Part shown: one piece after another, positions 26,167 to 44,794 of the stretch
Position numbering within the stretch: position 1 is the stretch's first letter
Layout: the number at the start of each line of letters is the position of its first letter
NCBI GenBank assembly: GCA_001829315.1
Contig: MIAY01000014.1
Span: 60,801 to 124,800, forward strand
Direction: 5' to 3'
DNA length: 64,000 bases
Source of the DNA: Spirochaetes bacterium GWE1_32_154
Lineage (GTDB): Bacteria; Spirochaetota; GWE2-31-10
The notes under the pieces: model-generated
What the model saw: only the letters and a program-made list of their open reading frames with translations
Database searches by the model: none
Told to the model about the DNA's origin: nothing
Program-made: the position numbers and the translations under genes

Positions 26167-28038
26167 ATGATACATAGAGATTACGACATTATAATAGTAG
26201 GTGGTGGGCATGCAGGTTGTGAAGCTGCATATATAGCATCAAAAAGAGGATATAAAACCATTCTAATAACCCAGAATCCTGATACAATTGCAAAAATGAG
26301 TTGTAACCCATCAATTGGCGGAATCGGGAAAGGACACCTTGTAAGAGAATTAGATGCATTAGGCGGTATAATGGCTAAAACAATAGACCGTTCAATGATT
26401 CAATTCAGAATGTTAAATACTAAAAAAGGACCTGCTGTTCAAGCAATGCGTTCACAAGCTGATAAACTTGATTATCATGTCGCAATGAAAAAAACTCTTG
26501 AAAACAGTAAAGATCTTGATATATTTATGGATACTGTTGTGGACTTAAAAATAGAAAACAACGCAATTATTGGTGTCATAACAGAGCGGGGAAATACAAT
26601 TTCTGCTAAAGCTGTAGTATTAACCACCGGAACATTTATGGAAGGAAAAATACACATCGGACAATATAACAGTATGAATGGAAGAATTGGAGAATTAGCA
26701 GCATTAGGTTTATCTGCTAATCTTCGAAAGATCGGATTTGATGTCGGTAGATTAAAAACAGGAACCCCTGCACGAGTTACCAAAAGAAGTATAGATTTTT
26801 CAATACTTGAAAAACAGGATGGTGACCCGATGCTATTTCGTTTTGCAAATTTTGATGACACTCCAATAGACCGGCCAAATGTGCCTTGTTATGTCACTTA
26901 TACAAATGAAAAAACGCATTCAATTCTTCGTGATAATTTTGAACGCTCTCCTTTATTCTCAGGACGTATAAAAGGTGTCGGCCCCCGTTACTGCCCTTCT
27001 ATAGAAGATAAAGTAAAGAAATTCCCGGATAGAGAAAGACATCAGGTTTTTATAGAACCGGAAGGTTTGTATACGGATGAACTTTATTTAAACGGGTTAT
27101 CAACATCAATGCCGGAAGATGTGCAATACGCATTCTTAAAATCTATTGCGGGGTTTGAAAATATTGAGATAGTCAGACCGGCATACGCTGTAGAATATGA
27201 CTATCTTAATCCGATTCAATTAAAACCATCACTTGAAACAAAACTTATTTCAGGGTTATTTTTAGCTGGTCAAACCAATGGCACTTCAGGATATGAAGAA
27301 GCTGCAGCTCAAGGTACTATTGCAGGGATTAATGCATGTCTATTCGTAGAAGGTTCAGAACCATTAATACTGGGAAGAGATGAAGCGTATTTAGGTGTTC
27401 TTATTGACGACCTGGTAACTCAAGGGACTACTGAACCATATAGAATGTTTACATCGCGTGCTGAATATCGTTTACGACTGCGACAGGATAATTGTGATTT
27501 ACGACTCACTCAATATGCAATTGAAAGAGGTTTTATTTCCGGGGTTGAAAAAGATAGATTTGAAAATCGAATCATTGAAATATCCACAATAAAAGACCTT
27601 CTTAATAAAACAAAACTAAAAAAAGATCAGATTGAATTAATCAATCTGCAAGGAATAAAAAGCGGTTCAAAATGGGAAGATTATATAAAAAACCCGAATA
27701 CTGATTTTCAAGATGCTTTTAGTTTATTTATTAAAGATTTTTCAAATATCACTCAATCCTCATTTAATACTGCTGCTATAGAAATAAAATATGAAGGGTA
27801 TGTGGCAAAACAGGAAAAAGATGTTCAAAAAACAAAAAAACAAACAGAACGAATCATCCCGCTTGATATAAACTATGATGATATCCGTGGCATTTCAAAT
27901 GAAAGTCGGGATAAGTTCAAATCAGTAAAACCTGTGAATATAGGTCAGGCATCACGAATCAGCGGAATAACACCGGCAGACATTACAATTTTAAGTATTT
28001 ATATATACACCCAAAATCAGAAGAAAAATAAATTATAA
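26167..28038 (+). CDS. mnmG: tRNA uridine 5-carboxymethylaminomethyl modification enzyme MnmG (GidA)
   Basis: 623 aa; FAD-binding [13 protein letters not shown]-terminus, full-length GidA architecture. Confidence 0.95.
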
Positions 28039-28056: not shown

Positions 28057-29466
28057 TTAATCAATATCACCTTTTGTTTGTAATAAATGCCCTATTTCTT
28101 TTAATATTTCTGTCAATTGTTTCTTTTCTACAACCTCAAGCATTCTTGATTCAATAAAATTAATAGCAGTATCACTAAAACTGCCGGCAGTAATACAAAC
28201 TCCTTTATCTGTTTTTTCATCTTTTAACATATTATAAATATTTCTAACTGTAAAATCACCAATGATTGTATTTGATCTAAAAAAAATAAAATAATATGTT
28301 AAAACAAATTTATTACTGGAAACTTCAACACGTATCTCCATTTCACCTCTTTGATTTAACTGAGTCGAAATATATTTAAGATTACCTGTCAGCGTTGAAT
28401 ATTTTGAAATATAATATTTCACAAACATTTTACAAATATTGGTAAATTCGTTGATAGAACCAATCAAATATTTTTCTAATAAAGTATTTCTCGCAAGCTG
28501 TGCATATAAATCGATTTTTTGTTGAACATCTTTATATGACGCATCGATTTTAGCAGCTTCTTCTAAATAATACAGAGATTTTGCAACATTATGGATATTA
28601 AAATAACATTCAGATAATAAATAATACATTTCCAATAAATATGCTGTTTTTGATGAAAATTTATCTTTCATTTTAATTAATTTTTCTAGCATTTCTATTG
28701 CTTGAACATATGCTTTATCTTTTTTATTAATATTTGCAATAATAAATAATGCATCAATAGAATATTTATCAATATTCATAATATTAACTAAAATCCGTTT
28801 TGCATCTTCACTTTTATTCAATTTATAAAGTCCATACCCCATATAATATAAAGCTTCATAGTCATCAGGTTTCAATTCAATAATTTTACTCATAGAATTA
28901 ACACATTCACGATATGAACCTGCTTGAAATGATAAAATTCCTTTAATTTTTTGAGACTCTTCGTCTTCCGGCTTAACCCTTGAAGCAATTGTCATAAAAG
29001 CCAATGCTTTTTCGAAATTTTCAGCATCATATTCAATTTTACCCAAATAAAAATTAGTTTCAAAATCAAGATCATCAATTTTTTTAGCAAATGAAAAATA
29101 TTTTTTTGCATCAGCAATATTATTGAGATGATAATAACTTTTTCCGGCTGTTACAGTATATTTTAATTCACTTATATCAGGATTTGAAACTGAAGCATCA
29201 ATTAATAACATGCATTCTTTGATAGCCGGTAAATACATTTTTGACAAAAACAAAACCTCTACTAATTTTTCTCTTGTTTTATGATCTGATGGTTTATTTT
29301 TCAAAATTTTCCTTAATTCATCTATAGCAAGGTAACTATTTTCTTTATTGATATTTTTTAAATTGCTGTCAACTTTCTTTTTTCCCATTTTTTTTAACAC
29401 TGTAATGGCAATTGAAAAAAAAACTATTAAACCACACAAAAGAGTAAGTATTAAAAGTATATCCAC
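28057..29466 (-). CDS. Membrane-anchored TPR-repeat protein with C-terminal restriction-endonuclease-like (Mrr-cat-like) domain
   Basis: 469 aa; N-terminal TM helix, several TPR-like repeats, C-terminal segment (TIIGDFTVRNIYNMLKDEKTDKGVCITAGSFSDTAINFI) resembling the Mrr catalytic-fold region. Confidence 0.5.
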   Translation of the reverse strand: MDILLILTLLCGLIVFFSIAITVLKKMGKKKVDSNLKNINKENSYLAIDELRKILKNKPSDHKTREKLVEVLFLSKMYLPAIKECMLLIDASVSNPDISELKYTVTAGKSYYHLNNIADAKKYFSFAKKIDDLDFETNFYLGKIEYDAENFEKALAFMTIASRVKPEDEESQKIKGILSFQAGSYRECVNSMSKIIELKPDDYEALYYMGYGLYKLNKSEDAKRILVNIMNIDKYSIDALFIIANINKKDKAYVQAIEMLEKLIKMKDKFSSKTAYLLEMYYLLSECYFNIHNVAKSLYYLEEAAKIDASYKDVQQKIDLYAQLARNTLLEKYLIGSINEFTNICKMFVKYYISKYSTLTGNLKYISTQLNQRGEMEIRVEVSSNKFVLTYYFIFFRSNTIIGDFTVRNIYNMLKDEKTDKGVCITAGSFSDTAINFIESRMLEVVEKKQLTEILKEIGHLLQTKGDID

Positions 29467-29496
29467 TTGTCCTCCAAAAAATTTTTATATGAAAAA

Positions 29497-29606
29497 CCTC
29501 TTGCAAAAATACTTTTCTTTTCTCGAATTTTTGCATGAGGGTACTTCTAACGCAATTATATTGCGTATGGCGGGAGCAAAAATAATGTACTCATGATTTT
29601 TGCAAG
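29497..29606. promoter_or_regulatory. Divergent intergenic region with three copies of 12-mer TCTTGCAAAAAT (one direct, two inverted), candidate operator cluster
   Basis: TCTTGCAAAAAT at 29499-29510; ATTTTTGCATGA at 29527-29538; ATTTTTGCAAGA at 29595-29606; the first two form a 13/14 bp inverted repeat. Confidence 0.4.
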
Positions 29607-29802
29607 AACCTCTGAATATTCTAAATTATTTTTTAATTTTTTACAATAGCTGTACATGCAAATAAAAAATTTAATACTGATTAAAGATCTGCTTTATAGT
29701 TAAAATATTTTACAAGTATCTCTTAAGATAATACATTATAATGCCGAAAAAATAAATACTGCAATAAAAAAAAGCAGAATTTTACAATGTAAGGAGGACA
29801 AA

Positions 29803-30726
29803 GTGGCTCTCCCAAAAAGTATTGGAATTAGATTATTTGATGACAGTTTTGTTCCTGTTTTAACTGAAGGTGAAGTAAAAAATAAAAGAGTAATTTTAAC
29901 AACAGTAAGAGATAATCAGGAAAAGGCAATTATTGAACTGTTTGAAGGAACAAGTGATACTTGTTCTGAAAATGAATATCTTGGTAAATTAACAATCGAT
30001 ATAAATAGGAATACTGACAAAGGTGAACCGGGACTTGAGGTTAATCTACGATTAGATGATGATGGTGTTCTTTATGCAAAAGCATGGGATCAGGAAAGTA
30101 AAGAAGAGAGTGAAATAGTGATTGAACATTCTTCTGCAAGACAGATTATTCCTGAAACATTGACTGATGATGAGATCAATGATATGGGGGATACAAAATA
30201 TCAGGAAATTCCGAGTTATTATGAAGACTCAAATCAGGATTATGTGACTCACAAAATGAATAATGAACCTGTAACATCTTACAGCGAAGAAAAATCTCCG
30301 GATAAAAAACTGATTATTATAATTTTAGCAATTATTCTTTTATTAATTCTTGGTATCTTAGTATTTTTTATGCTAAAAAACAATGCTAAAAAAGAACCAA
30401 AACCAGTTGTTACCGAAACTATTGTTGAGACAACAAATGTTATTGAAGAACCTGAAATATTACCTCCGCCTGAAGAAATAAAACCGGTTGAAATGAAGCA
30501 GGAAACAGAAACAATAATTGGAACAAATAAACTTGAAGGTAAAAAGCACTTTGTAAAAAGAGGTGACAATCTATGGAATATTTGTAAAAAGTACTACAAA
30601 GATCCATGGTATTATCCGAATCTCGCTGAATTAAATCAAATAAATAACCCACGATTGATATTAGCAGGATCATATATTATAATACCGCAAAAATCATCAG
30701 TTAAAAGGTGGGATTTTTCCAGATAA
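29803..30726 (+). CDS. Membrane protein with N-terminal Hsp70 (DnaK) substrate-binding-domain-like region, single TM helix and C-terminal LysM domain
   Basis: 307 aa; GTG start preceded by AAGGAGG; residues 5-125 align by eye with the DnaK beta-sandwich SBD (SIGIRLFDD..VLTEG..DNQEKAIIELFEG..YLGKLTIDI..LEVNLRLDDDGVLYAKAWD); hydrophobic helix about 170-192; C-terminal LysM-like motif (HFVKRGDNLWNICKKYY..LAELNQINNP..ILAGSYIIIP). Confidence 0.6.
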   Translation: MALPKSIGIRLFDDSFVPVLTEGEVKNKRVILTTVRDNQEKAIIELFEGTSDTCSENEYLGKLTIDINRNTDKGEPGLEVNLRLDDDGVLYAKAWDQESKEESEIVIEHSSARQIIPETLTDDEINDMGDTKYQEIPSYYEDSNQDYVTHKMNNEPVTSYSEEKSPDKKLIIIILAIILLLILGILVFFMLKNNAKKEPKPVVTETIVETTNVIEEPEILPPPEEIKPVEMKQETETIIGTNKLEGKKHFVKRGDNLWNICKKYYKDPWYYPNLAELNQINNPRLILAGSYIIIPQKSSVKRWDFSR

Positions 30727-30815
30727 TATGTATAATCGATAAAAGCGTAATTATTTATAATTACGCTTTTTTTAGCATTTCGACACTTGTATTAATTTAA
30801 AAAAAATCGTAAGTT

Positions 30816-31808
30816 ATGAAAATGAATAAAAAACTCAATCATATAATTGTACTCTTAATTTTAATTTTTATTGGATGTAAATCTACTGTCCCCCCAATAG
30901 TATATGATCAATCATATTCAAATTTAAAAAATGAAATTGAAATTATAACACTATTAATTAATCAAAATGACTTTAATAATGCACAAAAAAGAATCAATCA
31001 AAACCTTTCAGTTTACAATAATGATTTACAACTATTGACACTATCGATTCATTTATTAACAAAAGAAGGTAAGTATTCTGAAGCATTAAATAATGCTGAG
31101 AATTTATTATTAAAAAACAAGTCAAATCCCCTGCTCTATGCTCTATTAGCAACGATTTATTATCATAATGGTGATATTGAAAAAGCACACAATTATATTA
31201 AATTATCATTAAGTATTTCAAAAAATATTTCTTATACATGGTATCAAAAAGGTTTTTTTGAATATAATGAAAAAAATTATAATGCATCTGAAATAAGTTT
31301 TAACAGAGCTTATTTATTGGATAAAAACAATACCGATGCTTATTTTTTTCGATATTTATCAAGACTTTACATACAACAGAATATTGACGAATTAAAAAAA
31401 GAATGGAACTTTATTAAAGAAAATATCATACTTTCGTCAGCTCATTATGTATATCATGCTATTGTTTTATATGAAATAAAGAGTATCAAAGATGCTGAAG
31501 AAATAATTAATGAAGGGTTCTCATTATTTCCCGATGATCCTTTTATTTTAAATTGCATCGCATACTTAATTACAATAAACTATAGTAATACTCAAGAAAA
31601 AGATGACTTGCTCTTAACAGATGCATTGGATAAAATATTGAAATCATTATCCTATACTATTCTGCCGGAATTCGCAGATACTCATTTACAAATACTTTAT
31701 TTACAGAAAAATTATACTGAACTGGAAAATAACTATAATAAATATAAACTTCTATTTCCTGAAAATCAAATTATTCAGGAATGGAATATAAAAATCAAAC
31801 CGGAGTAA
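30816..31808 (+). CDS. TPR-repeat lipoprotein
   Basis: 330 aa; signal peptide with LIFIGC lipobox, TPR-like repeats. Confidence 0.5.
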   Translation: MKMNKKLNHIIVLLILIFIGCKSTVPPIVYDQSYSNLKNEIEIITLLINQNDFNNAQKRINQNLSVYNNDLQLLTLSIHLLTKEGKYSEALNNAENLLLKNKSNPLLYALLATIYYHNGDIEKAHNYIKLSLSISKNISYTWYQKGFFEYNEKNYNASEISFNRAYLLDKNNTDAYFFRYLSRLYIQQNIDELKKEWNFIKENIILSSAHYVYHAIVLYEIKSIKDAEEIINEGFSLFPDDPFILNCIAYLITINYSNTQEKDDLLLTDALDKILKSLSYTILPEFADTHLQILYLQKNYTELENNYNKYKLLFPENQIIQEWNIKIKPE

Positions 31809-31812
31809 AATA

Positions 31813-33087
31813 ATGAAATATTCAATAATGAAAAACTCTTGCAAAAATACATTTTTTACTTCTTTTTTTTGCAAAAGCTTTTATATACTCTTTCTATTTA
31901 TAAGTCTGTCATGTTCAAACATGAAGGATAAAAGTAAAATAGTCCCGATTTTTTCTTTTGATATAGGTTATGATGAAAAAGAGTTAGGGCTGGTTAATGA
32001 AGTAATACATCAGGAACAAAAAAATATAAATTACTGTTATTCTAACGGTTTTTATTTTATTTCAGATAGAATCAATAATAAAATACTCAAAGTTACCGAA
32101 TCGGGAGAAATATTACTCACTATTTTTAATAAAATAAATTATCCTGTTATTGCTGAAAATACAGGTAACACTGATAATAATCAAACAAGTGATGTAGACT
32201 ATTTAATTCTATATAGTGAATACAATTTAATGTCTCCAGGGTTAATATCAGCTGATAATGAAAAGAATATTTTCATAATTAATAGCAACCCGGATTATAA
32301 AAAACTGAAAAATAATGTTGTTGAAGATAAAATAATCTTAAAATTTAATCCTAATGGTATACTGGAATTTGAATTAGGTCGAAATGGTATTAATACAGAA
32401 CCCTTTGGCTATATTATCAGCATGAAAAATGATGTAGATAATAATCTTGTTATTATTGAAAAAATGAATGATGGTTTTCAAATCTACAAATTCTCATCTC
32501 AAGGCACATTAATATTAAAATCAACAATTACATTAAAAAATATTCCTTTATTAAAAAATGAAATTAGTTACATTATTTCGTTTGTTGACATCAGATCAGA
32601 TTATCGGGAAAATGAAATTTATATTACCTGTCAATTTGCAAGTAAAGAAACGACAATGATGTTGGAAACATATTCTATTGAATATGAAAAGATTTATTTA
32701 TATTCGCTAAAAGAAAACAAAATATCAAAAATGTTATTAAAAATTAACCAGGAATATGAAGATTTATCTAAATTTAAATTAAATCAGGATATTACAGAAC
32801 TTTATGGAGATAAAAAATCAATTGCCAAGCCATTTCAATCAATAATCGGTTTAGATAATGTAAACAATATATATTTATTTCAGAAAGAAATTCCTTTTCA
32901 GAGTATTACTGCTAATAATCAATATATTATGAAATATCTCGAAACAGGTAAACTTAGTAAAACTTCTTTTGTTGAATTTGAAAAAAACGCACTTTTTGTT
33001 AATAATTACTATTTAACTAATGATGGAAGAATAATAACATACATAATTAAGGAAGATAAAATTAACTTTGTTAAAATACTACTGTAA
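31813..33087 (+). CDS. Hypothetical lipoprotein
   Basis: 424 aa; hydrophobic N-terminus with LSC lipobox-like motif; no recognisable domain; contains a fourth copy of the TCTTGCAAAAAT 12-mer at 31837-31848. Confidence 0.45.
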   Translation: MKYSIMKNSCKNTFFTSFFCKSFYILFLFISLSCSNMKDKSKIVPIFSFDIGYDEKELGLVNEVIHQEQKNINYCYSNGFYFISDRINNKILKVTESGEILLTIFNKINYPVIAENTGNTDNNQTSDVDYLILYSEYNLMSPGLISADNEKNIFIINSNPDYKKLKNNVVEDKIILKFNPNGILEFELGRNGINTEPFGYIISMKNDVDNNLVIIEKMNDGFQIYKFSSQGTLILKSTITLKNIPLLKNEISYIISFVDIRSDYRENEIYITCQFASKETTMMLETYSIEYEKIYLYSLKENKISKMLLKINQEYEDLSKFKLNQDITELYGDKKSIAKPFQSIIGLDNVNNIYLFQKEIPFQSITANNQYIMKYLETGKLSKTSFVEFEKNALFVNNYYLTNDGRIITYIIKEDKINFVKILL

Positions 33088-33098
33088 GTTGGTAATTC

Positions 33099-33647
33099 AT
33101 GAAAAAAAATACATATAACAAACCGGAAAACATCGTTGTAGATGGAGAAGTTGTTAGTTTTCATTACAAAAGAGATGACAGATTAAAAATGACCGGTGTT
33201 TTGACTGGTAATGAAAAAACATCTTTTTTTTCCAAAAAATATAGATATTTACACATCATGTTAGTTGATTTACTTATAATAGCTATTATCGGGATCATTT
33301 TAACCTCCTTTTACGGAAGAACAAAATCAGTTATTCATAATGATATCAAGTATTTATTTTCACGAAAATCATATTCAAATAATTCAATAATGAGTTTTAA
33401 TCTACAAATCAAAAATGAAAGTTCCGAGATCAGAGAATTGCCCGGGAATTATTACAATTGCTATCTTCTTGATGAAAATAATAACAAACCTTTTTCCAAA
33501 GAAATTTTCATACAAAAAACACGACTTATGCCATCTGAATTTTATATTGAAAATATTGTAATTAATAATTTACCTCCCGGTATGTATACATTTGTTTTTA
33601 TTATTGATAACAATATAACATTTGAAATGAATTTTAAAACAAAATAA
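33099..33647 (+). CDS. Hypothetical membrane protein
   Basis: 182 aa ORF with one TM helix (residues about 55-75); no recognisable domain. Confidence 0.4.
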   Translation: MKKNTYNKPENIVVDGEVVSFHYKRDDRLKMTGVLTGNEKTSFFSKKYRYLHIMLVDLLIIAIIGIILTSFYGRTKSVIHNDIKYLFSRKSYSNNSIMSFNLQIKNESSEIRELPGNYYNCYLLDENNNKPFSKEIFIQKTRLMPSEFYIENIVINNLPPGMYTFVFIIDNNITFEMNFKTK

Positions 33648-33648
33648 T

Positions 33649-34422
33649 ATGAGTAATACACTTATTGATACACACGCACATATTTTTTCTCATGAATATG
33701 AAAATGACCTTGAAACAGTAATTAAAAACTCAATTGCATCAGGTGTAACAAAAATAATTATACCCAATATTAATGCCGATTCAATCCTTCCTATGATTGA
33801 ATTGTGTGATGCCTATCCCGGTATTTGTTTTCCGGCTATAGGTATTCATCCGACTGACATTGAAAGCTCACCAGTTGAACAAATTAAATGTTTAGAAAAA
33901 GAACTATTAAAACGCAAATTTATTGCTATTGGTGAAACTGGTATTGATTTATATTGGGACAAATCAAATCTTTCAAATCAAATAGTTGCACTTTCTACTC
34001 ACATTAAATTAGCATCTTCTTTTGATTTACCTTTAATTATACATTCAAGAAATTCATTTCAAGAAACAATAGATACTATTGTAACACATAAAAAAAGTAA
34101 TACTCGAGGTGTTTTTCATTGTTTTTCCGGAACATATAAAGAAGCATGCACAATAATTGAATCGGGGTTTTTACTGGGAATCGGGGGAACTGTTACTTTT
34201 AAAAATAGCACTCTGCCTGATATATTACCGTTAATAGACTTAAAAAATATTGTATTGGAAACTGATAGCCCCTATCTTGCTCCGATTCCATATCGGGGAA
34301 AAAGAAATGAACCTGCTTATATAAAAGATATTGCAAGAAAAATTTCTGATATATATACAATTTCAATAGACGAGGTTGCAAAAATTACGACAGAAAATGC
34401 GAATATTCTCTTCAATTTCTAA
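33649..34422 (+). CDS. tatD: TatD-family metal-dependent hydrolase/DNase
   Basis: 257 aa; N-terminal IDTHAH motif and TatD-like TIM-barrel spacing of His/Asp residues. Confidence 0.85.
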   Translation: MSNTLIDTHAHIFSHEYENDLETVIKNSIASGVTKIIIPNINADSILPMIELCDAYPGICFPAIGIHPTDIESSPVEQIKCLEKELLKRKFIAIGETGIDLYWDKSNLSNQIVALSTHIKLASSFDLPLIIHSRNSFQETIDTIVTHKKSNTRGVFHCFSGTYKEACTIIESGFLLGIGGTVTFKNSTLPDILPLIDLKNIVLETDSPYLAPIPYRGKRNEPAYIKDIARKISDIYTISIDEVAKITTENANILFNF

Positions 34423-35454: not shown

Positions 35455-36573
35455 TTATATTCTCCGCTTTAATTCATTGTACAACTCAGAAACAATAGGA
35501 GTTACATGACCTGTAGAAATATACTTATCAAGTACTTTTATCCCTTCCGCGTAATCTCCGCTTTCCTTATAACAAAGAGCTAATTCATACAATGATCGAT
35601 TATTACCAGGATCTCTATTATATGCATCTTTCAAAATATTGATCGCTTTACTATAATCTTTACGTTCAATATTGATAAATGCCAATCCTAAAATAGCATA
35701 ATAATCATAATCAACATCTAAAGCTTCTTTATAATACTTTTCAGCATCATCTAAATAACTAAGATTTCGATACGCGTCTGCTAAACGGGTCATAATAACT
35801 TTATTATTCGGACTTAAATCCAACAGTTCCTTCCAGGCATGTAAACTCTCTTCATGCATAGCAAGCCCTCTGTAACAATCTGCCAAACCATATAATGCAT
35901 AAAAATTCTTACCTTGAACTTTCAAGGCATTTTCAAAAAAGACAATACCTTCATCAAATGATTTTCGTTTTCTATGACAGTTACCAATTGCTGTTAGTAT
36001 TCGAATATTATCAGGTTCCAGTTCAAACATTTTCATCCAATATTCTAAAGCCCAATCATATTTCTTATTTTCAAAAAATAAATATCCGATACCGGTTAGT
36101 GCATAAGAATTATTTGGATCTATTTCAAAAACTTTTAAATAGAATTTCTTTGAATTCTCATAATCACCAAGTTTTCTATACGAATCCGCCAATCGTGTTA
36201 AAACGGTAATATCAACACCATAGTGAACAATAAAATGTTCCCATAAACTAATCGACTCTCGAAAATTACCTGTTTCTCTATACACATCAGCAAGACCAAT
36301 TAGTGCATATTTATTTTCGTGATGATGATCTAAACAACTTTTATAAAACGTAATTGCATTATTATAATTACCTGTTTTTCTGGCAATATCACCTAAACCA
36401 ACAAGTGCATAATGATTAAACTGATCTAAACTAACAATTTTATTAAATAACTCTTTAGCTTCTTCAAATTTAGAATGCTTCACAAGGTCATAAGCTTCTT
36501 TAGAAATTTTACTCAATTCATCTACCGGATCTATATCATTCCCAAACAATTCTTCATTAAATTCACTTCCCAT
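35455..36573 (-). CDS. TPR-repeat protein
   Basis: 372 aa; at least seven tandem TPR-like 34-residue repeats. Confidence 0.6.
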   Translation of the reverse strand: MGSEFNEELFGNDIDPVDELSKISKEAYDLVKHSKFEEAKELFNKIVSLDQFNHYALVGLGDIARKTGNYNNAITFYKSCLDHHHENKYALIGLADVYRETGNFRESISLWEHFIVHYGVDITVLTRLADSYRKLGDYENSKKFYLKVFEIDPNNSYALTGIGYLFFENKKYDWALEYWMKMFELEPDNIRILTAIGNCHRKRKSFDEGIVFFENALKVQGKNFYALYGLADCYRGLAMHEESLHAWKELLDLSPNNKVIMTRLADAYRNLSYLDDAEKYYKEALDVDYDYYAILGLAFINIERKDYSKAINILKDAYNRDPGNNRSLYELALCYKESGDYAEGIKVLDKYISTGHVTPIVSELYNELKRRI

Positions 36574-36925
36574 TTTTATTCCCCGTCATCATAATTTTAT
36601 CGTATGTTTTAATTTCTTTAATAGTTTTATTAGTACCATCTTCATTAATTAATGAACTTATAATCCTGGCACAATTTTCTGAAAACATCCGTATTTTTTG
36701 TTCATTACCGGACATAAAGTACATTTCAGCCGCTTTATAAATTGTATTATTATCATAATAATAATCACCAAGTCGCAATATACCATCTTTATAGTCAACA
36801 CTGACAAAAATTTTTTCTGCTGCTTTAATATTACCTTCAGAAAAAAACTGATTACCTTTCCTAATAAGCATAGCTCTAGTTGAAGGATCTACATTTTTTT
36901 TGTAAACATTACCCTTTTTTATCAT
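36563..36925 (-). CDS. Hypothetical protein
   Basis: 120 aa ORF overlapping the downstream TPR gene start by 11 bp; no recognisable domain. Confidence 0.4.
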   Translation of the reverse strand: MIKKGNVYKKNVDPSTRAMLIRKGNQFFSEGNIKAAEKIFVSVDYKDGILRLGDYYYDNNTIYKAAEMYFMSGNEQKIRMFSENCARIISSLINEDGTNKTIKEIKTYDKIMMTGNKNGK

Positions 36926-44074: not shown

Positions 44075-44149
44075 CGGGATGTGGCCTAGTCCGGTTATGG
44101 CGTCTGGCTTGGGACCAGAAGATCGGGGGTTCGAATCCCTCCATCCCGA
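44075..44149 (+). tRNA. tRNA-Pro (anticodon TGG)
   Basis: Hand-folded cloverleaf: acceptor CGGGATG/CATCCCG, anticodon loop CTTGGGA, T-loop TTCGAAT. Confidence 0.85.
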
Positions 44150-44153
44150 ATTT

Positions 44154-44227
44154 GCGCCAGTAGCTCAGTTGGATAGAGCAACAGCCTTCTAAGCTGTGGG
44201 TCAGGAGTTCGATTCTTCTCTGGCGCA
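44154..44227 (+). tRNA. tRNA-Arg (anticodon TCT)
   Basis: Acceptor GCGCCAG/CTGGCGC, anticodon stem ACAGC/GCTGT with loop CTTCTAA, T-loop TTCGATT. Confidence 0.85.
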
Positions 44228-44240
44228 TTCTCAATTTTAT

Positions 44241-44313
44241 GGTGGATGTAGTTCAGTGGTAGAGCGCCAGATTGTGATTCTGGTTGTCGTGGGTTCAAAC
44301 CCCATCATTCACC
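44241..44313 (+). tRNA. tRNA-His (anticodon GTG)
   Basis: Anticodon stem CCAGA/TCTGG with loop TTGTGAT, T-loop TTCAAAC, encoded 5' G(-1) and discriminator C. Confidence 0.8.
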
Positions 44314-44319
44314 CAACAC

Positions 44320-44393
44320 GCGTCCGTGGCTCAGCTGGATAGAGTAGCGGACTTCGAATCCGTCGGTCGCAGGTTCGAATCCTGCCGGGCGCA
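44320..44393 (+). tRNA. tRNA-Arg (anticodon TCG)
   Basis: Acceptor GCGTCCG/CGGGCGC, anticodon loop CTTCGAA, T-loop TTCGAAT. Confidence 0.8.
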
Positions 44394-44400
44394 TGATTTT

Positions 44401-44473
44401 GGGCCGTTAGCTCAGTTGGTAGAGCAGCAGACTCTTAATCTGCGGGTCAAAGGTTCGACCCCTTTACGGCTCA
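44401..44473 (+). tRNA. tRNA-Lys (anticodon CTT)
   Basis: Acceptor GGGCCGT/ACGGCTC, anticodon stem GCAGA/TCTGC with loop CTCTTAA, T-loop TTCGACC. Confidence 0.8.
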
Positions 44474-44485
44474 TGTTTATTTATT

Positions 44486-44566
44486 GCGAGCGTGGTGAAA
44501 TTGGTAGACACGCTAGACTTAGGATCTAGTGCCTTTGGTATAGGAGTTCGAGTCTCCTCGCTCGCA
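44486..44566 (+). tRNA. tRNA-Leu (anticodon TAG), long variable arm
   Basis: Acceptor GCGAGCG/CGCTCGC, anticodon stem CTAGA/TCTAG with loop CTTAGGA, extended variable arm, T-loop TTCGAGT. Confidence 0.8.
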
Positions 44567-44580
44567 TTTTTTTTATTTAC

Positions 44581-44653
44581 GCGAGAATAGCTCAGTTGGT
44601 AGAGCGCAACCTTGCCAAGGTTGATGTCGAGAGTTCGAGTCTCTTTTCTCGCT
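44581..44653 (+). tRNA. tRNA-Gly (anticodon GCC), copy 1
   Basis: Acceptor GCGAGAA/TTCTCGC, anticodon stem CAACC/GGTTG with loop TTGCCAA, T-loop TTCGAGT. Confidence 0.85.
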
Positions 44654-44721
44654 CATTCCGGTACTGTCATTTTTGATATTTACCGGACAAACAGTCACTT
44701 TTTGTGATAAAACAAACATAC

Positions 44722-44794
44722 GCGAGAATAGCTCAGTTGGTAGAGCGCAACCTTGCCAAGGTTGATGTCGAGAGTTCGAGTCTCTTTTCTCGCT
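44722..44794 (+). tRNA. tRNA-Gly (anticodon GCC), copy 2 (identical to copy 1)
   Basis: Exact repeat of the 73-nt sequence at 44581-44653, separated by a 68-nt spacer. Confidence 0.85.

Follow-up and report, generated by a model that had tools for sequence, protein, structure and literature searches.

One of the closest described counterparts of the protein at the centre of this work is TPANIC_0042 of Treponema pallidum, in which an N-terminal Hsp70 substrate-binding domain (SBD) goes together with LysM, a combination which was noted as previously unreported and for which no function was given (10.64898/2026.05.05.717303). Literature searches on TP0042 and TP0043 returned nothing beyond this 2026 preprint. 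The same domain architecture (TPANIC_0042/TP0042 being compared by description, not by sequence) is found in the product of SBD_LysM, one of two divergently transcribed genes in a 64,000-nucleotide stretch of DNA from Spirochaetes bacterium GWE1_32_154 (contig MIAY01000014.1, positions 60,801 to 124,800 of the forward strand), an AT-rich sequence (29% G+C) referred to here as the window. The other gene, TPR_Mrr, encodes a protein with tetratricopeptide repeats (TPRs) and a restriction-endonuclease-fold domain. An earlier note on this DNA had suggested that both genes belong to a five-gene, co-regulated envelope module marked by copies of one 12-mer. The present analysis finds instead three separate things lying side by side: a conserved spirochaete gene pair, a miniature transposable element with inverted repeats (MITE) inserted between its two genes, and an independent block of lipoprotein genes. 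The conclusions on the MITE and on the block structure are held with high confidence, and towards the explanation taken as a whole, the best we can offer, we lean with some reserve.

The surroundings of SBD_LysM in related organisms recall a described gene cluster of Borrelia burgdorferi. In this species, BB0259 is a 717-amino-acid lipoprotein with a C-terminal SLT (soluble lytic transglycosylase) domain which is needed for the assembly of periplasmic flagella and whose gene adjoins bb0258 (PMC8517470), while FtsK is BB_0257 (PMC11185795). The order bb0259-bb0258-bb0257 is matched by the order SLT lipoprotein, BacA/UppP and FtsK after SBD_LysM in most Spirochaetia, and the SLT lipoproteins of these relatives have the same architecture as BB0259, to which they are likened by domain layout and gene order. 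The window differs from the Borrelia cluster in that it is without slt-uppP-ftsK. No Borrelia SBD_LysM or TPR_Mrr was recovered by a scan of one genome per species.

Proteins that connect the cytoplasm with the cell wall are familiar from the divisome. FtsN and ZipA are bitopic divisome tethers; ZipA binds an extended peptide in a hydrophobic groove, and the wall-binding domain of FtsN is a SPOR domain. SBD_LysM would resemble them in combining a cytoplasmic partner-binding module, a charged flexible linker, one transmembrane (TM) helix and a domain for peptidoglycan binding at the C-terminus, this last feature being common to FtsN. However, it has no sequence or fold relationship to either protein, carries LysM in place of SPOR, and has a peptide module derived from Hsp70. 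The comparison is one of functional analogy, not of kinship, and rests on established knowledge. A further spirochaete protein pair that might be likened to the present one is formed by BB0238, which has TPR motifs, and BB0323, which has a LysM domain. BB0323, a lipoprotein of the periplasm, is not known to carry an Hsp70-like domain, BB0238 is not known to have one of the Mrr type, and their genes are not known to lie side by side. In B. burgdorferi the two proteins are reported to interact, and their interaction to be needed for infectivity (PMC5462797). The likeness would lie in the combination of a TPR protein with a LysM protein in a spirochaete, whereas by description the domains and the gene adjacency differ.

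The two proteins of the divergent pair

SBD_LysM (positions 29803-30726, plus strand) is an open reading frame (ORF) for 307 amino acids. Its product begins with an Hsp70 SBDβ domain (residues ~4-110) that includes the first part of helix A; an acidic linker leads on to the TM helix (170-191), and a variable linker from there to a LysM domain (~247-295). The assignment of Hsp70-SBD and LysM domains to this protein and of TPR and Mrr domains to its partner, both made in the earlier note, is upheld by Pfam. In SBD_LysM the substrate-binding part of the HSP70 profile (profile positions 391-536) was matched at 43.5 bits, and LysM at 34.4 bits against a gathering score of 20.9 (residues 251-295). 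Compared with the PDB, a profile of 18 homologues matched the substrate-binding domains of Hsc70, DnaK and Ssb (E = 6e-13), and BLASTP against a manually entered sequence of residues 389-607 of E. coli DnaK gave E = 5e-15. In the AlphaFold model, eight β-strands lie within residues 6-108 and a TM helix spans 168-192; the LysM domain has beta-alpha-alpha-beta topology with a predicted local distance difference test score (pLDDT) of ~90, and the best Foldseek matches of the model are to the DnaK SBD (E = 7e-9). The eight-stranded β-sandwich of SBD_LysM is homologous to that of Hsp70/DnaK by sequence and by fold, and the pocket positions are kept.

Conservation within the family was followed in an alignment of 58 members with identities down to ~25%. 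Positions conserved in at least 90% of these members are, in DnaK numbering, G400, I401, F426 (as L), S427 (as T), T428, D431, N432, Q433, I438, G443, G468, P470, D479, G482, L484, A488 and D490. Among them, I401, F426, S427, T428, Q433 and I438 are the residues which we take, from established DnaK structures, to line the peptide pocket. Judged from this alignment, the hydrophobic-pocket positions of DnaK are the best-conserved residues of the SBD_LysM family.

Although its β-domain is a true Hsp70 β-domain, SBD_LysM is not an Hsp70, because it has neither the ATPase nor the lid. The protein starts at the first SBDβ strand, without the N-terminal actin-like ATPase domain or the interdomain linker, and the DNA upstream is intergenic. 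Of the helical lid (SBDα) there is the start of helix A only; after residue 110 the pLDDT falls below 50, and the TM helix follows. In contrast to that of Hsp70/DnaK, the domain has a TM helix and LysM fused to it, and an ATP-driven chaperone cycle is impossible. Since SBD_LysM lacks a signal peptide and has one TM helix, and since LysM must reach the wall, the N-terminus appears to be cytoplasmic and the C-terminus periplasmic. The homologue of Treponema porcinum (L068:9998-12133, L-numbers denoting retrieved loci of other genomes or contigs) has the same order of SBD, TM helix and LysM in 711 amino acids, of which ~450 form a strongly acidic, probably disordered linker between the Hsp70-like domain and the TM helix. 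Treponema SBD_LysM proteins differ from that of the window in this very long acidic linker and in being without an adjacent TPR_Mrr in the retrieved loci.

TPR_Mrr (28057-29466, minus strand) encodes 469 amino acids, and its product matches a hypothetical protein from Spirochaetes bacterium GWF1_31_7 at 100% identity. An N-terminal TM helix and a K-rich stretch are followed by ~8 TPR-like helix pairs, which extend to residue ~335, and by the restriction-endonuclease-fold domain (~338-464). Pfam recognises TPR repeats and, at residues 402-454, gives a weak match to Mrr_cat which at 25.1 bits exceeds the gathering score (21). The AlphaFold model (pLDDT 86.7) has a long TM helix and a C-terminal domain of alpha-beta-beta-beta-alpha-beta-alpha-beta-alpha topology, in which the modelled alpha-beta-beta-beta-alpha-beta portion is like that of Mrr_cat/NA-iREase1. 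Among the C-terminal domains of the family, Mrr_cat was matched by 13/13 members (best 4e-10) and NA-iREase1, an 'inactive REase' (inactive restriction endonuclease) model, by 12/13, the matches to these hidden Markov models spanning the second half of the domain only. A sequence-profile search of the PDB with the C-terminal domain gave only a marginal match to RPB5 (E = 0.98). The domain is mildly basic (pI 7.9-9.3), and in a set of 1.84 billion proteins its family has 132 cluster representatives, almost all with 445-470 amino acids and the domain at the C-terminus. It is almost confined to the TM-TPR architecture, and its family to proteins of Spirochaetota type. More distant TPR_Mrr-like genes are present at L082:12374-13753 and L083:6801-8177, where they show 20-22% identity, carry Mrr_cat and are followed by DUF212 and a glutamate-5-kinase-like gene.

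The topology of TPR_Mrr, with an N-terminal TM helix, cytoplasmic TPRs and a small C-terminal domain, is like that of LapB (YciM), and the NCBIfam model for LapB weakly matches its TPRs with E = 3e-8, the 33 bits being far short of the cut-off of 363. However, the C-terminal domain of TPR_Mrr has the restriction-endonuclease fold and is not a rubredoxin domain. Nor does it conform to Mrr_cat/NA-iREase1 in every respect, being joined to TM and TPR segments and being without (D/E)xK. The canonical catalytic D...(D/E)xK motif is missing from the family alignment, in which E377 and E381 (beta-2) and F393, F395 and R397 (beta-3) are invariant. Because F393/F395/R397 stand where (D/E)xK is expected, nuclease activity seems unlikely, although an unusual active site in the nuclease-fold domain is conceivable.

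The Mrr_cat domain and a faint PADLOC match to mREase_IV (E = 0.007) could be read as signs of an anti-phage or restriction-type defence system composed of an Mrr-like nuclease and a chaperone-like sensor. This is very unlikely in view of the missing canonical (D/E)xK, the family's match to the 'inactive REase' model, the fixed core-genome position of the pair beside mnmG across the whole class, and neighbours that are cell-wall and division genes. PADLOC matches were insignificant or of low complexity (PD-T4-6 over the TM and linker region), and no significant match of the pair to a defence-system protein model was obtained. The claim that the pair cannot be assigned to a described system holds, given that PADLOC yielded nothing meaningful and that the literature amounts to the one 2026 preprint noting the architecture of TPANIC_0042.

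Conservation of the pair and its possible role

The scan of one genome per species found relatives of SBD_LysM at 72 loci, all from Spirochaetota (including Treponema, Sediminispirochaeta and Marispirochaeta); the neighbour counts that follow have as denominators those loci with enough flanking sequence. TPR_Mrr lies in divergent orientation and at most 1.5 kb upstream of SBD_LysM in 45/65 loci, with an ORF-based median gap of ~100 nt between the two genes. At the paired loci, identities range from 22 to 45% for TPR_Mrr and from 24 to 53% for SBD_LysM. The divergent pair, which had been singled out as unusual from the window sequence, is real, uncharacterised and conserved across spirochaetes.

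Both flanks of the pair hold recurrent neighbours. In the window, mnmG (gidA; 26167-28038, plus strand) is the conserved upstream neighbour of the pair, and tblastn places mnmG beyond TPR_Mrr in most paired loci; rsmG lies upstream of SBD_LysM in 33/53 loci. Downstream of SBD_LysM and on the same strand, an SLT-domain lipoprotein of 680-733 amino acids is encoded in 44/53 loci, its start often overlapping the SBD_LysM stop; BacA/UppP is found downstream in 30 of 47 loci and FtsK in 26 of 40. SBD_LysM is, in most Spirochaetia, the first gene of a closely spaced run on one strand that includes the SLT lipoprotein, UppP and FtsK, and slt-uppP-ftsK is kept even in relatives with 45-48% identity to the SBD_LysM of the window. 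The flanks are variable, since rsmG may be present or absent upstream and slt-uppP-ftsK, maf-rpsB or the lipoprotein block may lie downstream, while the pair itself is kept. The run of SBD_LysM, SLT lipoprotein, BacA/UppP and FtsK can be seen at L011, L014, L015, L033, L068 and ~40 loci besides, with mnmE-mnmG-rsmG upstream.

Domain content and gene context suggest, tentatively and with the balance close to even, that the pair is a spirochaete-specific inner-membrane module which ties a cytoplasmic client to peptidoglycan for wall remodelling. SBD_LysM would span the inner membrane from a cytoplasmic N-terminus to a periplasmic C-terminus, where the LysM domain would anchor it on peptidoglycan, and the cytoplasmic β-domain would constitutively clamp a partner by an extended hydrophobic peptide, no ATP cycle being involved. 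The clamped partner might be TPR_Mrr, or a divisome or flagellar-assembly protein. TPR_Mrr, with lysines after its TM helix and its bulk predicted to be cytoplasmic, would serve as a membrane-anchored cytoplasmic scaffold, and the pair would position or regulate wall remodelling, including that by the lytic transglycosylase, at sites of division or flagellar assembly.

A more far-reaching version, which is speculative and in our judgement unlikely, draws on the analogy with ZipA and FtsN and takes SBD_LysM as a trans-envelope tether peculiar to spirochaetes in which an orphan Hsp70 SBD acts as a static peptide clamp in the cytoplasm, ATPase-less and lid-less. Such a tether would link to peptidoglycan either a client from the divisome or from flagellar assembly or the membrane-anchored TPR/inactive-nuclease partner, and the TPR_Mrr partner might itself hold DNA at the membrane. 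SBD_LysM would also position a BB0259-type lytic transglycosylase, which would account for the way in which this enzyme is 'pre-localised' where new flagella and septa form.

Several observations weigh against the wall-remodelling module. In the window's own lineage slt, uppP and ftsK are not near the pair, and SLT, BacA, FtsK, RsmG and MnmE were not found in the whole 64-kb window, so that the wall-remodelling context is borrowed from relatives. Within SBD_LysM, the residues of the DnaK 'arch', M404 and A429, are not retained among the 58 members, and K/R counts are alike on both flanks of the TM helix, where the positive-inside rule is not decisive. Contact between SBD_LysM and TPR_Mrr, or with any client, is a prediction from domains and gene context. 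TPR_Mrr is absent from the side of SBD_LysM in 20/65 loci, including all Treponema loci retrieved, and at least two relatives (L082, L083) have TPR_Mrr-like genes that are not next to SBD_LysM. The adjacency of the two genes could also be inherited synteny, as mnmG and rsmG are conserved next door without an obvious functional link.

These last points, namely the conservation of the unrelated mnmG and rsmG beside the pair at the same loci, the unpaired loci and the separate TPR_Mrr-like genes, speak for what is the serious alternative: that the two genes are adjacent merely through inherited gene order near mnmE-mnmG-rsmG and take part in unrelated processes. However, the head-to-head arrangement survives to ~22-25% identity while both flanks rearrange, the median gap between the genes is short, and both products are modelled as anchored in the inner membrane with cytoplasmic protein-binding domains. 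On this evidence inherited order is a doubtful explanation, albeit one of some substance, and the wall-remodelling module is the reading that we carry forward.

A transposable element between the two genes

The five ORFs from TPR_Mrr to 33647 and the 336-bp intergenic region between the divergent genes (29467-29802) lie exactly where the earlier note had placed them. The note had further described this region as a repeat-rich control region with three copies of a 12-mer, and had pointed to a fourth copy at the start of a downstream 424-amino-acid lipoprotein gene. The 12-mer, TCTTGCAAAAAT, is found exactly at 29499 (+), 29596 (-) and 31837 (+), and with one mismatch at 29527 (-). Two of the three intergenic copies are exact, one forward and one reverse, whereas the third, a reverse copy, departs by one letter. 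With at most one mismatch, TCTTGCAAAAAT occurs 7 times in the whole window against 2.24 expected, a number reached by 1 of 100 shuffles.

The three intergenic copies are parts of a MITE of 119 nt (29494-29612, unstranded) which lies ~27 nt upstream of the TPR_Mrr start codon and contains three hairpins. In the window its termini are AAACCTCTTGCAAAAAT and ATTTTTGCAAGAACCTC, and it is bracketed by a 4-bp target-site duplication, TGAA, with the left copy at 29490-29493 and the right copy at 29613-29616. The first 12-mer (29499-29510, plus strand) is the core of the left terminal inverted repeat (TIR) and the third (29596-29607, minus strand) that of the right one, while the second, with its one mismatch (29527-29538, minus strand), is an internal complement of the left terminus and closes hairpin 1.

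The history of the site can be read from two sister genomes, L077 and L078, in which SBD_LysM is 93% identical and gene order is common for >15 kb. There the divergent intergenic region measures 177 nt as against 336 nt in the window; alignment shows that the whole repeat-bearing block is missing and the orthologous site is empty. Deletion of 29494-29612 together with one TGAA copy makes the window collinear with L077/L078. At the L077 locus no copy of TCTTGCAAAAAT was found, even with one mismatch, although the same five genes are present there. The MITE is a lineage-specific, non-autonomous transposable element of 119 nt that was inserted with duplication of TGAA, and the clustered 12-mers are its two TIRs and one internal complement, not an operator. 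The description as a control region rich in repeats finds no support in this comparison. A second indel of 38 nt (29667-29704) distinguishes the intergenic region of the window from that of L077/L078 and is unrelated to the MITE. A 35-amino-acid ORF at 29489-29596 was considered as a gene and rejected: it starts outside the MITE, has no ribosome-binding site, and copies of the family show 1-nt indels.

The MITE belongs to a larger family. Metagenome contigs were scanned for TCTTGCAAAAAT followed, after 70-100 nt, by ATTTTTGCAAGA, which yielded at least 118 stretches (loci L084-L201), several of them on the same contigs; after removal of duplicates, at least 98 MITE copies in two subfamilies were left. 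Family consensus TIRs are GAGCYTCTTGCAAAAAT ... ATTTTTGCAAGAGCCTC, the outer left end of the window copy being AAACC. The window holds a single full copy, which is 97% identical to the L173 copy and 93-94% identical to those of L184 and L190; among the matches listed, another 27 copies, which lie elsewhere and in either orientation, show ~76-90% identity to it. On AT-rich contigs a perfect 4-bp direct repeat lies just outside the 17-nt terminus in 25 of 32 copies, and on GC-richer contigs (>=38% G+C, mostly 40-50%) a 3-bp direct repeat accompanies 47 of 66, in both cases among the matches listed. The AT-rich subfamily measures ~119 nt and has 4-bp duplications; in the GC-richer one the core, counted from TIR core to TIR core, is 112-114 nt, the internal hairpin is long and perfect, and the duplications are of 3 bp. 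Because their very different interiors carry the same ends, with a common 12-nt terminal core, a single transposase family is suggested to stand behind both.

With known bacterial MITEs the family shares TIRs, target duplications, a length of ~110-120 nt, noncoding sequence, many copies, intergenic positions and an empty orthologous site; it differs from them in lacking a matched parent insertion sequence (IS) and in having two structurally different subfamilies with a common 12-nt terminal core. Distant pairs of termini in the retrieved loci enclose ordinary genes, with no transposase gene between them, and BLAST found no plasmid match to the MITE. A literature search on the terminal sequence returned primers only, and no described family or parent IS with these ends. 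That no autonomous transposon with the MITE ends was found among the retrieved loci and plasmids counts against a mobile origin. The family is apparently undescribed, is widespread and has structured, co-varying hairpins.

These hairpins raise the question of whether the element acts chiefly as an RNA, be it a cis-regulatory 5' leader of TPR_Mrr or a small RNA, with mobility secondary. The stretch 29490-29620 folds unusually well on either strand (z-scores -4.1 and -4.5), and the consensus structure of 28 copies has three hairpins with 30 pairs, 7 of which show compensatory double changes. The MITE also sits between the ribosome-binding site of TPR_Mrr and a promoter-like site found by consensus scan (29618-29646, minus strand; TTGTAA, 17 nt, TAGAAT). 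As 3 promoter-like sites were found in the scan against 2.8 expected, this match is not significant by itself; the stretch that holds it is conserved with L077. It is a candidate promoter of TPR_Mrr, and if it is used the MITE is probably transcribed as the 5' leader. However, the copies occur in both orientations, at unrelated loci and with target duplications, the sister genomes keep TPR_Mrr without the element, and recognition by a transposase would also conserve hairpins. Rfam, searched with the window at the gathering threshold and with the intergenic region at E <=10, returned only tRNAs and noise, so that the MITE is not a known RNA family. A predominantly RNA function, which could exist alongside mobility, is on these grounds quite improbable, and the element is treated here as a MITE. 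The result is ordinary in itself and useful in that it removes a false regulatory signal.

The lipoprotein block and the meaning of the pair

Downstream of SBD_LysM, the plus strand of the window carries genes for a TPR lipoprotein of 330 amino acids (30816-31808, lipobox FIGC), a LIC_12708-like lipoprotein of 424 amino acids (31813-33087, lipobox LSC), a single-pass membrane protein of 182 amino acids (33099-33647) and, as the last member of the lipoprotein block, a tatD-family protein (33649-34422). Homologues of the 330-, 424- and 182-amino-acid proteins are near SBD_LysM in 0/72 species-level loci. They form a block of their own elsewhere, which was examined at three loci lacking the LysM gene (L081-L083). 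There, the TPR lipoprotein and the LIC_12708-like lipoprotein are followed, sometimes after an Nnr/YjeF gene, by a membrane protein of ~181-193 amino acids and then by tatD, which ends the block in two of the three loci (L081, L083) and is also present in the sister genome L077 (TatD_DNase). Identity of the block homologues to the window proteins is 28-47%, with 28-32% for the 330-amino-acid and 28-31% for the 182-amino-acid protein at L081-L083. The TPR lipoprotein, LIC_12708-like lipoprotein, 182-amino-acid protein and tatD constitute an independent conserved block. Because it recurs elsewhere without SBD_LysM and is beside SBD_LysM in none of the 72 loci, its adjacency to the pair is specific to this lineage, in which it has replaced slt-uppP-ftsK downstream of SBD_LysM.

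The 424- and 182-amino-acid proteins of the block had been described as having no recognisable domains. For the 182-amino-acid protein this holds, no significant domain match having been found; the 424-amino-acid protein, in contrast, matches NCBIfam LIC_12708_fam over nearly its full length (E = 1e-38) at 133.3 bits, below the cut-off of 150, and is a relative of the LIC_12708 family, not a member by NCBI's rule. The fourth 12-mer (31837-31848) is within an in-frame insertion of ~30 nt in the signal-peptide region of the 424-amino-acid gene (31836-31865, plus strand, limits ambiguous), recognised by alignment with the sister genome, from which it is missing and where the protein has 414 amino acids; the insertion adds 10 residues. 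The surrounding sequence is similar to the left arm of the MITE (58 nt, 72% similar to 29478-29535; 20 nt, 95% identical, E = 0.002), and the insertion may be a MITE remnant inside coding sequence. A part for the 12-mer at this gene as a signal shared with the intergenic region is not supported. The 330-amino-acid lipoprotein was also considered as a truncated N-terminal domain of the SLT lipoprotein and this was rejected: the similarity (hhalign probability 40%) is of a generic TPR kind, since the unrelated TPR region of TPR_Mrr scores higher (96%).

It had been proposed that all five genes make up one envelope module with a common 12-mer operator at the divergent promoter and at the start of the 424-amino-acid gene. 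The local over-representation of the 12-mer, the contiguity of the five genes in the window genome and in sister genomes, and the presence of a TPR_Mrr-like gene 4-5 kb from the lipoprotein block in L082 and L083 would fit this proposal, the last of these possibly reflecting simply the relatedness of the genomes. It is contradicted, however, by a sister genome whose locus has all five genes and zero 12-mers even with one mismatch, by the identity of the intergenic copies as MITE termini with a target duplication, and by lipoprotein genes that are never beside SBD_LysM in 72 other species. A five-gene module under one operator has very little chance of being correct, and the division into gene pair, MITE and lipoprotein block is retained.

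Beyond the block, the minus strand of the window (35455-36925) encodes a 372-amino-acid protein made up almost entirely of TPRs and an overlapping 120-amino-acid protein without a family match; the sister genome keeps the two side by side, at 98% and 93% identity. Eight tRNA genes form an array (44075-44794) that reads Pro, Arg, His, Arg, Lys, Leu, Gly, Gly, with two identical tRNA-Gly(GCC) genes 141 nt apart.

The pair and its link to slt-uppP-ftsK represent a conserved, spirochaete-restricted envelope module in which familiar domains occur in an unreported combination. The SBD_LysM family reaches Treponema, and in T. pallidum a protein of the same architecture has been flagged and not explained. 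If SBD_LysM does position or control the lytic transglycosylase of flagella and wall, this would bear on how spirochaetes open peptidoglycan for periplasmic flagella and for septation, and SBD_LysM would clearly exemplify the reuse of a chaperone domain as a fixed adaptor.

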